DNA of 64,000 nucleotides from Escherichia phage T5 (NC_005859.1), one strand, 5' to 3'. Numbered from the stretch's first letter, positions 53,905 to 64,000 are shown. A program made the numbers and translations. Notes: generated by a model not told the origin, from the sequence alone.

Positions 53905-54639
53905 TTACGCAACTTTTAATTTCTCAATATATTGTTGCGGGCTGCAACTATATTCTGCGCGTTCTTCTTCGGTCATACCTTCCCAACATAATTGCAGGCG
54001 GTCGGCTAGGAACTGATAATCATTATCATCCTCAAGAGATTCATCAATAAAGGTTTCACCTATCAATGTCACGCCGATTGATAGAATATCATTAACGGCT
54101 TGTGCGTCCAGCGTTTTAAATCCGTATGACGCTGCCGCTGATAGCACGCCTTTATGATCATCAATCATTGTAAAATCAGCGTTCGGATATAATTGTTTGA
54201 ATAGCCCAAAATAGTAACTTTTATAAACTGCGTCTTTGCTGTGGTATATCTCGCTAACTTTATCAGCCTCAAAATATTTGTGTAGTGTATCGCGGGAAAA
54301 TACACGGATATTACTATCACCACGACCGCGCAACCCTTGTTTACGCAAATAATAATAGTCCGACTTGCTCATTAGTCGAGCGGTGCAAATAATGTTTAAA
54401 GTATTTGCGTCATTCATGCACTGGCGCATATATGTAACAAGGGGCAATAGTGTATCTTGCATTATTAAATCATGTTTGCAGGCTTCATTTTTATACTTAT
54501 TTAAATCTAAATTGCCCTCGCTATCAAAGCAAGGCGCTACACGATGAAACGAATTAATGATAGTGCCGTCCAGATCCCAAATCATGACGCGGGAAATATG
54601 CGGGAAATTACGGGTAATATTCGTTTTAACTTGATTCAT
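53905..54639 (-). CDS. dmp: 5'-deoxyribonucleotidase (HAD family), Dmp-like
   Basis: 244 aa; HAD motif I IWDLDGT; terminal-repeat-like position next to A1. Confidence 0.75.
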   Translation of the reverse strand: MNQVKTNITRNFPHISRVMIWDLDGTIINSFHRVAPCFDSEGNLDLNKYKNEACKHDLIMQDTLLPLVTYMRQCMNDANTLNIICTARLMSKSDYYYLRKQGLRGRGDSNIRVFSRDTLHKYFEADKVSEIYHSKDAVYKSYYFGLFKQLYPNADFTMIDDHKGVLSAAASYGFKTLDAQAVNDILSIGVTLIGETFIDESLEDDNDYQFLADRLQLCWEGMTEEERAEYSCSPQQYIEKLKVA

Positions 54640-55486: not shown

Positions 55487-57157
55487 TTACGCAAAGAATT
55501 TACCATTCTTAAAGTCAATCAAAGTGCGTTGACCGTTTGCATAGGTAATAATATGCGTTTGAGTCCAGCTAGACGCGCCAACGTTGTAACCCATGTCCAG
55601 ACTACCAGTCACGCCAGCGGTATAAACGCCGCCGTAAATGCTGGCGGTGTGGGTGTGTCCGGTGTTTAATTTGCCCAATTTCTTAAACTGTTTCGGGTTG
55701 CCACGGCTCCCGTTAATGCCGTTGTGACCGTGTACGCCGCATTCAATGCCTGCAATCTTGAAAGATTGGTCAGTGGTCAGGAAAATGGCGTTAAATTCAC
55801 AGCCTGCAACCTTGCGCAGCGCATAATCAAGCACGTTAAAAGTATCGTCTTTTTCTGCAATAGCTCCATAAATCGCAGCATTCAGGCGGTGATATAGTTC
55901 CGCGTTTGCTGGGTCGTCTTTAATGTTAGCATTACGATCATCTAACCAGCGGGATAGCGCCAGATCATGATTAGATTCAACAATGATTGTTTGAGAAAAA
56001 TCACGCTCCATTGATTCCAGTACGCGCCCCGTATCGATAAGATCATCTAATACCTTATCACGTCCGGCGGCATATTGTTTCGCTAGGAATACGCCAGATG
56101 CGCGGTTGTGATGGTTGCGTGATGTAAAATCATGCACGTCGTGTACAAACTGATATTTTGGTTTAAGAATATCAACAAGCCCGTAGGTGTCACCATGCCC
56201 CCAAGACGCAGCGGCGCACTCCTCATCTAATTTTTCAGCGTGAATGTCGCCATATTGTAAACCTAAAACGTGCCCCGTTGTTTCATAACATCCGGCAGGA
56301 GTGGCGCAAGTATTCAAATCATAAAACACGCCGCTCTCGTCCATCGTTTCAAGCTGGCGCACAAAAAACTCACCGTCCTCGTCAAACTCAACAATAAGCG
56401 CACCGAAGTTATGCAGCGCCTCGGCCTTTTGTCCTGCTTTCTGCTGGATGTAATTTTTTAGCGTTGCCGTTCCGGTTGAATACATACGGCGCACAATTTC
56501 ACCTTTTAAAGCTGGCACGCTTTCGGCGGTGATTTTAGCCGCTCCAATTGCTAGACCTTCAAGATTCAGCGCGGTTGCAGTTTCAGCGAATCCAGAAAGC
56601 GGATAATCTGCGGTGGGTAAAACGTTAATTTCAGCCATGAAAGCAAATCGGCGATTATTTAAAAACACGTTTTTATTGCAGATATATTTGTCAAATGCGG
56701 AATCGTATCTGATACCGTCGGCGCCCTCGCCATTTTGAAAACCGTTTTTGTTATAGATAAACTTGCTAACCAGCAAATCAGCGCCGATAAATTGGGCGTA
56801 TTGTTCAAGTGAGGCTAAAAAGTTTTTATGCGGGAACGTATTATTCTGAATCGATGTAATAATAAAGCGTTTACCTTGTTTTACTTCCCATTGCTCAACC
56901 GTGCTAGAAACAATCCCCGCCGCTTCTGGGCGCTCATCGTTTTTAATGGCTTTTGCTACTTTCGCCGCTTTCGGTTTCGCTGGTTTATTTGCTTCCAGCC
57001 AGTCACAAATTGCGGTAGAGTGTTTTGTTGTATCGTAAACCATTTTTGAAATATCGTCGCAAACTTCCAATTTAGTAGCGCGCAGACGTTTACCGTAGAA
57101 ATTAAAGTCAGCGGCCATTTTCAGGATAACGGTTTGTTTTTCTGCGGAAATAACCAT
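55487..57157 (-). CDS. A1: A1-like pre-early protein with metallophosphoesterase domain
   Basis: 556 aa, same length as T5 A1; calcineurin-like motifs GDIH, GDTYG, ESNHD, GHNG, HTHT in C-terminal half. Confidence 0.75.
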   Translation of the reverse strand: MVISAEKQTVILKMAADFNFYGKRLRATKLEVCDDISKMVYDTTKHSTAICDWLEANKPAKPKAAKVAKAIKNDERPEAAGIVSSTVEQWEVKQGKRFIITSIQNNTFPHKNFLASLEQYAQFIGADLLVSKFIYNKNGFQNGEGADGIRYDSAFDKYICNKNVFLNNRRFAFMAEINVLPTADYPLSGFAETATALNLEGLAIGAAKITAESVPALKGEIVRRMYSTGTATLKNYIQQKAGQKAEALHNFGALIVEFDEDGEFFVRQLETMDESGVFYDLNTCATPAGCYETTGHVLGLQYGDIHAEKLDEECAAASWGHGDTYGLVDILKPKYQFVHDVHDFTSRNHHNRASGVFLAKQYAAGRDKVLDDLIDTGRVLESMERDFSQTIIVESNHDLALSRWLDDRNANIKDDPANAELYHRLNAAIYGAIAEKDDTFNVLDYALRKVAGCEFNAIFLTTDQSFKIAGIECGVHGHNGINGSRGNPKQFKKLGKLNTGHTHTASIYGGVYTAGVTGSLDMGYNVGASSWTQTHIITYANGQRTLIDFKNGKFFA

Positions 57158-57507: not shown

Positions 57508-57915
57508 TTATTCGCCTGCGGCTTGTTTTACTTCATCGGCAACGCCTAACAGTTGCGCCACGGCGTCCAGCGTTTCCAATTTTGCACTTTCCAGTGATGC
57601 CAGATCGTCAGCGTCTTTGATAATACCGGAATCGATGGCATGTTTTGCAATCACACGCACGTAGTGCGCTTTGCGGATAGAACTGCCGCCGCCAACCTTG
57701 CGAGGTTTATCGCTTTTCTGATACGCTTTCGCGCTGGTCAATTTTGAGCGAACAGACACGGGAGAAGCCGCGCCAACTGCTTTTGCAATCTCTTTTAAAC
57801 CGTCGCTATTTGCGAAATCTAAACCGTTTTCATTAATTAACTGCTGGTACATGGAAACAGCTTTCTGAGTGTTTTCTTCATTCCAAGCGAATTTTGCGGT
57901 TTTAGCGTTAGTCAT
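57508..57915 (-). CDS. A2: A2-like pre-early DNA-binding protein
   Basis: 135-aa ORF immediately after A1 in transcription order; size and position match T5 A2. Confidence 0.65.
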   Translation of the reverse strand: MTNAKTAKFAWNEENTQKAVSMYQQLINENGLDFANSDGLKEIAKAVGAASPVSVRSKLTSAKAYQKSDKPRKVGGGSSIRKAHYVRVIAKHAIDSGIIKDADDLASLESAKLETLDAVAQLLGVADEVKQAAGE

Positions 57916-62734: not shown

Positions 62735-62938
62735 ATGAGCAATAAAATTATTGTGACCAAAACTACCACAATGGTAGACGTTTTTTATGTGCCCGATACG
62801 CCGGAGAATCGGGGAGCGGTCGAGCGGGGCGAGTATGATAGCGTTATTTATGATGCCGATGGTTATTATCAGCATTTGGTCGATTCCTACGGGGAAGAGG
62901 AGAAGATCACGCATCGATTACCCGAGGGGGATTTATGA
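62735..62938 (+). CDS. hypothetical acidic small protein
   Basis: 67-aa ORF. Confidence 0.5.
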   Translation: MSNKIIVTKTTTMVDVFYVPDTPENRGAVERGEYDSVIYDADGYYQHLVDSYGEEEKITHRLPEGDL

Positions 62939-63048
62939 AACGATGGTTTAATCACTGGTATAAACGGTTTTTAGTACGGCATCGCAAGTCTAGACAGCAA
63001 GATGATTGGCGGGAAATGGCAAAGCGTAACAATTGCCCACTTCTCTGA
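62935..63048 (+). CDS. small basic protein (37 aa)
   Basis: hand-translated MKRWFNHWYKRFLVRHRKSRQQDDWREMAKRNNCPLL; ATGA overlap with upstream stop; followed by terminator. Confidence 0.35.
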   Translation: MKRWFNHWYKRFLVRHRKSRQQDDWREMAKRNNCPLL

Positions 63049-63055
63049 TAACCGA

Positions 63056-63077
63056 CGGGGATCAGCTCCCCGTTTTT
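63056..63077 (+). terminator. rho-independent terminator closing the plus-strand cassette
   Basis: cgggga-tcagc-tccccg hairpin followed by TTTTT. Confidence 0.7.
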
Positions 63078-63191
63078 CACGCCTCCAGTTAAATCCCCCT
63101 TTGTTTTAGTATCCCCATCAAAATTAAACGCGTTAGAATGCGATCTAGGACGTTTTAGGCATATATTAGAATTATTCACTGCGTAGGAATA

Positions 63192-63320
63192 CTGTATAAA
63201 TATACAGTAGGATAACCTGGGGATAAGTCTGTTGATAACGCTTCAAAATGGCTAGGATTTTGTCAAGGCGAATCGTGCTGTTGATAAGTCTGTGGATAAC
63301 TTAAATAACAGTGTTTCTCA
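63192..63320. repeat. right arm of inverted repeat, with DnaA-box cluster and 16-bp palindrome
   Basis: palindrome ctgtataaatatacag 63192-63207; DnaA-box-like 9-mers (rc TTATCCACA at 63291-63299; variants at 63209-63239 and 63279-63287); tail cttaaataacagtgtttctcac mirrors the left arm. Confidence 0.65.
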
Positions 63321-63323
63321 CTT

Positions 63324-63480
63324 CCGTTTTTAAATACGAATCATTATCATTCGTATTCCGCTTTTTAAATGAGAATCATTCCGCTTTTTAAATGAGAATC
63401 ATTTCACTTCCTGAATAGTTCTCATTCCCTTTCTTAAATGAGAATCATTATCATTTGCATTTCACTTTTTAAATGAGATT
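63324..63480. repeat. array of ~22-bp direct repeats (CCGCTTTTTAAATGAGAATCATT)
   Basis: two perfect tandem copies 63358-63403 plus three degenerate copies; each holds the small dyad AATGA-n3-TCATT. Confidence 0.75.
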
Positions 63481-63509
63481 GATTCTCATTATCATTCGCA
63501 TTCAGGCGA

Positions 63510-63527
63510 GCAGGGCAATTGCCCTGC
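63510..63527. other. perfect 18-bp palindrome
   Basis: gcagggcaattgccctgc followed by gcttttg. Confidence 0.7.
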
Positions 63528-63533
63528 GCTTTT

Positions 63534-63756
63534 GTGCAAATCCGACATTTGCCCCCATGGATTACGCGTGGGCGTGTATGTGCAAATCCGACAATTTTTG
63601 GTAGTGTGCGAATCCGACCCGAAAAATTTTTATAGTGTGCAAATCCGACAATGAATTTTCCCAAAAACTCCAGCAATCACGAACTGCGTTCGAATCCTGT
63701 GGAATTAGCTAGAGTATGTGCAAATCCGACATGTGTTGAGATGTGCGAATCCGACA
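63534..63756. repeat. iteron-like array: six copies of 14-bp GTGC(A/G)AATCCGAC(A/C)
   Basis: copies at 63534, 63580, 63606, 63646, 63718, 63743 with irregular 25-72 bp spacing, all same orientation, non-coding. Confidence 0.8.
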
Positions 63757-63892
63757 AGATTTTTGTGACTTCGATGGGAGGGTGTGTGATTGTATGGGTT
63801 TGAGGGGAAGATGAGAGAGCGAGAGAAATTTGGGAGGCTAGAAGGATATGGGCGCAGGATTGGTGCGGAGCACCTGATTTGCGGGGATTTTG

Positions 63893-63936
63893 GGGAAGAG
63901 TTGAGATAATTTGGGAAGATTTGAGATAGGTGCAGA
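63893..63936. repeat. purine-rich tandem repeat (TTTGGGGAAGAGTTGAGATA-like, 2 copies)
   Basis: within a strongly G+A-skewed plus-strand tract 63770-63940. Confidence 0.5.
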
Positions 63937-64000
63937 AAAAGTAAAATTTTATTAGCTAAAGGGGGCAAAATAGCTTGACAAGTGAAAATTTCTGTGGCTC

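Follow-up and report, generated by a model that had tools for sequence, protein, structure and literature searches.

The injection stop signal (iss) of bacteriophage T5 contains an array of repeated dyads that, judged by their sequence scores, are statistically indistinguishable from strong operators of the host metal sensor Fur. The array lies at positions 63323–63502 of the window (the whole 64,000-nt stretch of T5 DNA analysed here) and is the block known as direct repeat C or DRE, in repeat region 3 of the stop signal. The block had already been catalogued but not explained, and the novelty would lie in reading it as a Fur-operator-type element. We put at roughly even chances the proposal that the array is a Fur-operator-like protein platform at the injection stop, where Fur and DnaA would form a complex.

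Position in the T5 terminal repeat

Positions 63050–63997 match AY692264 9269–10216 at 100% identity and AY587007 9190–10136 at 99.9%, which makes the final 10.1 kb of the window a terminal-repeat copy (window coordinate = terminal-repeat coordinate + 53860). The array is present in both terminal repeats. It occupies AT-rich, non-coding DNA (63300–63510) between paired DnaA boxes on one side and the 7.9% nick and the direct repeat D iterons on the other, and sits just left of the nick (Table 1). Within the 10.1-kb terminal repeat the iss lies toward the inner end, and the nick is where DNA transfer pauses once the first 8% of the genome is inside the cell. In AY587007 the array is annotated as "direct repeat C copies 1-4" together with palindromes E, F, G, H, and I, while AY692264 labels the whole block "injection stop signal". 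The sequence-only reading was right to assume a T5-like phage, and had interpreted the neighboring repeat families as a composite regulatory locus. The families do stand side by side, but the locus is a catalogued injection stop signal with no evident regulated gene or promoter.

The block is described in a preprint by Davison as repeat region 3, with 66-bp DRE1/DRE2 repeats that are conserved in 25 T5-like phages, and the position, conservation, and neighbors given there agree with those of the array, which has the same sequence. Only the DnaA boxes of this region are discussed in that account, the function of the repeats is called "impossible to guess", and Fur is absent. Published descriptions of the block consist of lists of repeats and palindromes. 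Papers from 2023 and 2026 state that functional studies of the stop signal are lacking and that its mechanism is poorly understood, and in papers up to June 2026 its contents are given only as "repeats, palindromes and DnaA boxes". No paper linking T5 to Fur was found in the searchable literature; older subscription papers on the region fall outside that search.

Architecture of the array

The array consists of six head-to-tail units of 35, 23, 23, 23, 35, and 41 bp (Table 1). Each unit is composed of an 11-nt T-rich leader (Y-C-N-Y-T-T-Y-Y-T-A-A), the sequence ATGAGA-ATCATT, and zero to three further hexamers (ATCATT, CGYATT), giving two to five hexamers per unit in a strict 6-bp register. 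Every unit carries the dyad AATGAGAATCATT. The long form of the unit is the 19-bp palindrome AATGAGAAT-C-ATTCTCATT, which includes the 7-1-7 dyad TGAGAAT-n-ATTCTCA, and the array contains overlapping 19-bp dyads (7-1-7 or 9-1-9) of the type AATGAGAAT-C-ATTMTCATT. With Tandem Repeats Finder, an array of period 23 is called at 63355–63449 (4.1 copies, 74% matches, score 109). A repeat search returned a 23-nt unit present five times, with two copies identical and adjacent, as well as a 67-nt duplication (63315–63381 versus 63419–63485, 82%) and many inverted repeats.

Table 1. Coordinates of features in the terminal-repeat copy of T5, with Fur-matrix scores where available.
Feature	Position	Strand	Sequence	Remarks
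dmp	53905–54639			pre-early gene
A1	55487–57157			pre-early gene
A2	57508–57915			pre-early gene
DnaA-box pair 1	63218–63238	+	TGGGGATAA + TGTTGATAA	DnaA-box-like 9-mers, 3 bp apart; direct repeat B copy 1 / IRD'
DnaA-box pair 2	63279–63299	+	TGTTGATAA + TGTGGATAA	second box is consensus; direct repeat B copy 2 / IRC'
Unit 1, 35 bp	63323–63357	+	leader TCCGTTTTTAA + ATACGAATCATT + ATCATT + CGTATT	holds palindrome E
Fur-like 19-mer, unit 1	63333–63351			17.9 bits
Unit 2, 23 bp	63358–63380	+	CCGCTTTTTAAATGAGAATCATT	first of the two perfect copies; core limited to two hexamers, 10.4 bits
Unit 3, 23 bp	63381–63403	+	CCGCTTTTTAAATGAGAATCATT	identical to unit 2; core 11.2 bits
Unit 4, 23 bp	63404–63426	+	TCACTTCCTGAATAGTTCTCATT	core is a degenerate dyad, reverse-oriented
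Unit 5, 35 bp	63427–63461	+	CCCTTTCTTAA + ATGAGAATCATT + ATCATT + TGCATT
Fur-like 19-mer, unit 5	63437–63455		AATGAGAATCATTATCATT	26.1 bits, top site of the array
Second Fur-like site, unit 5	from 63443			10.0 bits; overlaps the 63437 site, 6 bp on
Unit 6, 41 bp	63462–63502	+	TCACTTTTTAA + five hexamers
Fur-like 19-mer, unit 6	63472–63490			19.0 bits
Fur-like 19-mer, unit 6	63478–63496			18.2 bits; overlaps the 63472 site, 6 bp apart
GC-rich hairpin, palindrome J	63510–63527	+	GCAGGGCAATTGCCCTGC, then GCTTTTG	annotated; terminator-like pattern
Major single-stranded nick 1, 7.9%	63521–63528			annotated; overlapped by palindrome J
Iterons, six of 13/14 bp	63534–63755	+	GTGCAAATCCGAC(A)	annotated direct repeat D copies 1–6; starts 63534, 63580, 63606, 63637, 63718, 63743
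Purine-rich direct repeats	63805–63928		GGGAAGATGAGAGA + TTGGGGAAGAGTTGAGATA	near terminal-repeat end; annotated direct repeat A copies 2–3

The sequence-only reading had described units of about 22 bp at 63324–63480, with two perfect tandem copies accompanied by degenerate ones. The array and both kinds of copies are present, but the unit is 23 bp long and the array runs about 22 bp farther, to 63502. The dyad that had been noted, AATGA-n3-TCATT, is real: AATGAGAATCATT with at most two mismatches occurs 13 times in the 64-kb window versus 3.4 times expected, a count reached in 0 of 100 shuffles, and nine of the 13 dyads fall within 63333–63490. The 14-bp iterons (GTGCAAATCCGACA, from 63534) adjoin the array and, as proposed, form a separate family.

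The array does not lie in a real gene. The 80-aa and 43-aa open reading frames that run across it have no Pfam match, and the T5 records annotate no gene there; moreover, the 23-bp insertions and deletions that distinguish phages are incompatible with a reading frame. Short "hypothetical protein" genes have been annotated across the repeat region of several relatives (L009 940–1470, L010 800–1726, and L019 6032–8244), and these GenBank calls are very likely false. An RNA element was also considered and rejected, as an Rfam scan of 62900–64000 gave sub-threshold chance matches only.

Resemblance to Fur-binding sites

The dyad appears to be the core of a Fur box, a point beyond the sequence-only reading. 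The E. coli Fur consensus GATAATGATAATCATTATC has three matches with up to three mismatches in the window, versus 0.05 expected, and with up to four mismatches all matches fall within the terminal repeat, most of them within the array. Identity to the consensus is 16/19 at 63475–63493 (minus strand) and 15/19 at 63434–63452 and 63440–63458 (minus strand). The Fur motif of Baichoo and Helmann is reportedly the 7-1-7 dyad TGATAAT-n-ATTATCA, from which the phage 7-1-7 dyad differs by a symmetric T-to-G / A-to-C change. A 52-nt sequence located 20 bp upstream of iucA, which we take to be the footprinted aerobactin Fur operator, is matched in full (52/52 bases) by more than 640 E. coli plasmids. 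This sequence and T5 unit 5 have the 15-mer AATGAGAATCATTAT in common. The iucA promoter is among the footprinted Fur sites (Chen 2007).

The literal dyad AATGAGAATCATT is found in iron papers, which account for five of the six papers containing it in the literature searched. The Fur box consensus of Xanthomonas campestris, AATGAgAATcATTctCATT (Blanvillain 2007), is letter for letter the 19-bp palindrome of the phage arrays, and also the lone site of phage S130 described below; it differs in being a promoter operator from another organism, and shows only that Fur accepts the variant. The Acinetobacter baumannii Fur sites TTAAATGAGAATCATTTTCATTTAT (Eijkelkamp 2011) agree with T5 63434–63458 at 23/25 positions, and a Listeria review lists GAcAATGAgAATCATTATC.

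To score the resemblance, a symmetric 19-bp weight matrix was built from 21 distinct A. baumannii sites (Eijkelkamp 2011), which are computationally refined and themselves score 14.3–26 bits; E. coli operators served to validate the matrix. Across the 40 kb of E. coli K-12 scanned, seven matches reach 9 bits or more, all of them in Fur-controlled enterobactin intergenic regions: fepA-fes (12.5 bits), fepD-entS (15.4 and 10.4 bits), and fepB-entC (14.0, 11.9, 16.1, and 20.7 bits). This shows the matrix to be specific when applied to E. coli. The iucA control scores 18.2 and 14.2 bits at two sites 6 bp apart. The four best T5 sites (63437, 63472, 63478, and 63333; Table 1) score equal to or above these Fur-controlled E. 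coli regions, three sites in the two-hexamer units and overlaps reach 10–11 bits, and no non-coding site in the rest of the T5 genome exceeds 12.3 bits. In dinucleotide shuffles of the window, sites of at least 17 bits number 0.07 on average, and shuffles of the array contain any site of at least 14.3 bits in just 0.8% of trials. The copies are descended from one amplified unit, and the many sites therefore amount to approximately one independent coincidence.

A further Fur-like 19-mer, ACTGATAATCATTATCATC (54012–54030, 17.5 bits), is found some 150 bp in from the left terminal-repeat end. Here it forms part of the 3′ portion of dmp and codes for DDNDYQ. IME260 and Stitch, in which this peptide is kept, share the site, whereas Slocum and AAS21, in which the peptide is not kept, lack it. 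This site is probably a coding by-product.

The arrangement of the sites also has a counterpart in E. coli, where Fur clusters are made up of overlapping sites at 6-bp (or 3-bp) offsets and extend up to about 140 bp (Chen 2007). The site pairs 63437/63443 and 63472/63478, together with the rule for unit length given below, fit this cluster signature. The iucA, fepB-entC, fepD-entS, and fepA-fes operators are like the array in having 19-bp Fur-consensus dyads with 6-bp-offset overlaps, and extended Fur operators in E. coli, like the array, cover tens to more than 100 bp by means of overlapping sites. Unlike these operators, the array has units placed head to tail with an 11-nt T-rich leader between them, is located on the terminal repeat of a lytic phage, and has Fur binding as a prediction. 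It also differs in having no recognizable promoter or controlled gene: 83% of E. coli Fur clusters overlap a sigma-70 promoter (Chen 2007), whereas no sigma-70 promoter of a regulated gene was found at the array. The possibility that the block is itself a promoter array was rejected, since promoter-like matches do not outnumber those in shuffles (three versus 2.3 expected across the scanned region), and the lone weak match in the array, at 63468–63495, has no downstream gene.

Conservation and variation in T5-like phages

Positions 63200–63560 are matched by 539 phage records, 429 of which match over at least 80% of the length. We compared 14 relatives plus five more distant ones. The order DnaA-box pairs, array, GC-rich hairpin, and iterons is conserved in 14 of 15 enterobacterial relatives (the Pantoea phage counted in), so that the repeats, for which the sequence-only reading had suggested a motif search across T5-like genomes, are indeed conserved. 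The order is constant in Tequintavirus, Epseptimavirus, Sugarlandvirus, and Hongcheonvirus, as well as in Enterobacter phage KKP_3711 and Pantoea phage AAS21. The exception among the 15 is Serratia phage Slocum, which keeps the order and has other repeats in the middle.

From isolate to isolate the copy number ranges from 2 to 10 units; such variation was another of the checks that had been suggested. KKP_3711 has approximately two units, the Sugarland-type Klebsiella phages three, BF23 and SPC35 five, T5 six, S130 eight, YJin-2024a approximately nine, and Gostya9 ten, five of which are tandem copies of CCACTTCTTGAATAGTTCTCATT. The length of the unit, measured from start to start, equals 23+6n in all 53 of 53 units from 12 phages (23, 29, 35, 41, or 47 bp). 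Every relative that bears the array contains between one and eight sites of at least 14 bits.

The stem of palindrome J is kept in relatives, with another loop in Epseptimavirus, and in KKP_3711 it shows a compensatory C-to-G / G-to-C change (GCAGGGGG...CCCCCTGC). This suggests that the palindrome J hairpin is a conserved structure.

The Fur-like module is absent from Slocum, Proteus phage 1, and the Vibrio phages, and it is therefore dispensable for the architecture of the family. In repeat region 3 of Slocum (L027) there is no site of 10 bits or more between the DnaA boxes and the iterons, and the slot (2137–2310) contains two copies of AATAACGTAAGGTGAYTAATGATT. The slot of Proteus phage 1 (L020 8117–8270) has three 46-bp repeats with TAATGATAATCAC, scoring at most 11 bits, and that of Vibrio phage GRLPWR (L022 370–460) has 15-bp ATTAGTGATCCCTAT repeats. 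The DnaA-box pairs, about 50–61 bp apart, are conserved in Slocum, Proteus phage 1, JSF12, and GRLPWR. The iteron GTGCAAAWCCGA is conserved in most distant relatives and was not found in Proteus phage 1; its presence in the Vibrio relatives means that the iteron family extends as far as the Vibrio phages. Since the DnaA boxes and iterons are mostly kept while the repeats in the slot differ, the middle block is a variable cassette.

In Vibrio phage JSF12 the slot (L021 9471–9630) is filled by 20 tandem 8-bp units (AGACGTCT, AGCCTTCT, ATCCGTCT, and similar) that are GC-richer than the AT-rich array whose place they take. The met-box consensus of MetJ is AGACGTCT. In a single phase, the JSF12 8-mers agree with this consensus at 5.75 of 8 positions on average, a hint that the middle module could be an exchangeable array to which a cooperative repressor of the host binds.

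Lone palindromes are found elsewhere in the relatives. A near-perfect 19-bp Fur-type palindrome is present about 350–520 bp upstream of the DnaA boxes, directly after the last pre-early open reading frame, in many relatives and not in T5. Examples are AATGATAATCATTCTCATT in SPC35 (26.1 bits, L004 476–494) and AATGAGAATCATTCTCATT in S130 (25.4 bits, L008 477–495), and other sites are located at L009 476–494, L007 476–494, L016 451–469, L005 308–332, L006 267–291, and L015 273–291. A related palindrome, ATGAGAAY-N-AGTCTCAT, also not in T5, is found in the non-coding stretch that separates dmp from the left genome terminus of Salmonella phage Stitch (L025 17–35) and of Vibrio phages JSF12 (about 103 nt past the dmp stop, reverse complement of L021) and GRLPWR (about 73 and about 37 nt past the stop, reverse complement of L022).

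Probable protein recognition and alternative functions

The sequence-only reading had regarded the dyad as a plausible binding site for a dimer, and its pattern of variation is what such a site would be expected to show, with half-sites that vary independently and spacing that is quantized in hexamers. Among 37 unique high-scoring 19-mers from 15 phages, which were chosen by the matrix and are phylogenetically related, position 6 (G/T) and position 14 (C/A) vary independently (Fisher p = 0.74). The alternatives at these two positions are either the Fur-consensus base or the G/C variant of the iucA-upstream, Xanthomonas, and Acinetobacter Fur sites. Independent variation of the half-sites fits recognition by a dimeric protein, as opposed to the upkeep of base pairing.

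The protein in question could be one made by the phage. The dyads might serve as operators of a pre-early protein (for instance A2 or the A1/A2 complex) that binds or cuts there to end the pause, in which case the likeness to Fur sites would be coincidental or convergent, both being AT-rich 7-1-7 palindromes. It is established in the literature that A1 and A2 are needed for second-step transfer and that A2 binds DNA, and Davison proposes cleavage at one of palindromes D–J. The restriction of the motif to the terminal repeat is consistent with this proposal, as are the extra isolated perfect palindrome upstream in many relatives, which would be expected of a dedicated factor, and the switching of the middle module between phage genera, as under co-evolution with a phage protein. 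However, no DNA-binding domain is recognizable by Pfam in A2 or the other small pre-early proteins. The match of the array to real Fur operators equals that among bona fide Fur sites, which would otherwise be a notable coincidence, and the bases permitted at positions 6 and 14 are exactly those of the Fur consensus or of the known G/C variant. We consider a phage-encoded binder unlikely, if far from negligible.

The array could also act through its own structure, and the region 63300–63530 does fold strongly as single-stranded DNA (−39.6 kcal/mol versus −16 for shuffles, z = −8.5), as would be expected of nested palindromes. Such palindromes, aided by the nick immediately to the right of the array, could extrude as hairpins or cruciforms that obstruct the tail or the membrane channel, or that bring translocation to a stall; palindromes E–J are annotated at the locus, and secondary structure is among the options offered in recent reviews. 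On the other hand, no hairpin covariation between the arms of the dyad was found across the 37 unique sites, the long palindromes are by-products of the direct repetition of a short dyad, and hairpins would give no reason for a unit length quantized in 6-bp steps. As summarized by Davison, ejection of T5 DNA through FhuA goes to completion in vitro, and the DNA alone is therefore no block to passage. A purely structural stop seems to us improbable.

A role in DNA processing is given a similarly small chance. Both terminal repeats carry the array, which lies near the nick and not far from the terminal-repeat end (near 63999), and which could be recognized by the enzyme that makes the 7.9% nick, or by the terminase that makes the terminal-repeat ends about 500 bp away. 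Yet the annotation shows no such array at the other major nicks (18.3% and 32.6%), the motif occurs nowhere else in the genome, and how far the array lies from the repeat end varies between phages.

Least probable, and close to the composite regulatory locus of the sequence-only reading, is a replication origin or partition-like site, in which DnaA-box pairs, AT-rich repeats, and iterons stand side by side as in oriC or iteron plasmids: all three kinds of element are present at the T5 locus, and the DnaA boxes and iterons are conserved out to the Vibrio phages, but electron-microscopy mapping places the T5 origins near the genome center and replication genes are silent while only the first-step DNA is inside (both from Davison), the T5 annotation has no initiator gene next to the locus, unlike such origins, and the AT-rich block is not kept AT-rich in the Vibrio relatives, being swapped for GC-richer 8-bp repeats in JSF12.

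A possible Fur–DnaA complex at the injection stop

The sequence of the array, its conservation, and its Fur-likeness are established. We infer that Fur would occupy the array, and consider it highly probable that Fur binds it in vitro. In the mechanism we propose, iron-loaded host Fur dimers would first bind the strong sites in units 1, 5, and 6, and Fur would then spread along the hexamer register over units 2–4. Together with DnaA on the adjoining box pairs and any factor that binds the 14-bp iterons, Fur could form a nucleoprotein complex, which would assemble on the final stretch of DNA to come in during the first step. Speculatively, this complex might help to hold or time the pause before second-step transfer, or might mark the site at which A1/A2 act.

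The later steps are held with less assurance than binding itself. That Fur binding has a functional role in infection is doubtful, although possible, and a direct role of Fur in the stop is speculative and rated lower again. A protein bound to DNA in the cytoplasm does not obviously explain how a pressurized capsid is stopped, which weighs against the Fur reading.

Implications

How T5 stops after 8% of its DNA has entered, and how it restarts, has been a question since the 1960s. Reading the array as a set of Fur-type hexamers turns an uninterpretable repeat block into a specific, testable hypothesis. As a tentative generalization, which we hold to be possible but on balance improbable, enterobacterial T5-like phages would carry high-affinity Fur operators at the pause boundary, Fur and DnaA would work together in the stop complex, and the two-step transfer would be coupled to the iron state of the host; relatives that infect other hosts may swap in other arrays, such as the met-box-like repeats of JSF12. 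If Fur does not bind, the array would most likely serve a pre-early protein of the phage, for instance A2; that outcome would be informative as well. If Fur does bind and the binding matters, a lytic phage would be using a metal sensor of its host to structure or time the delivery of its genome.
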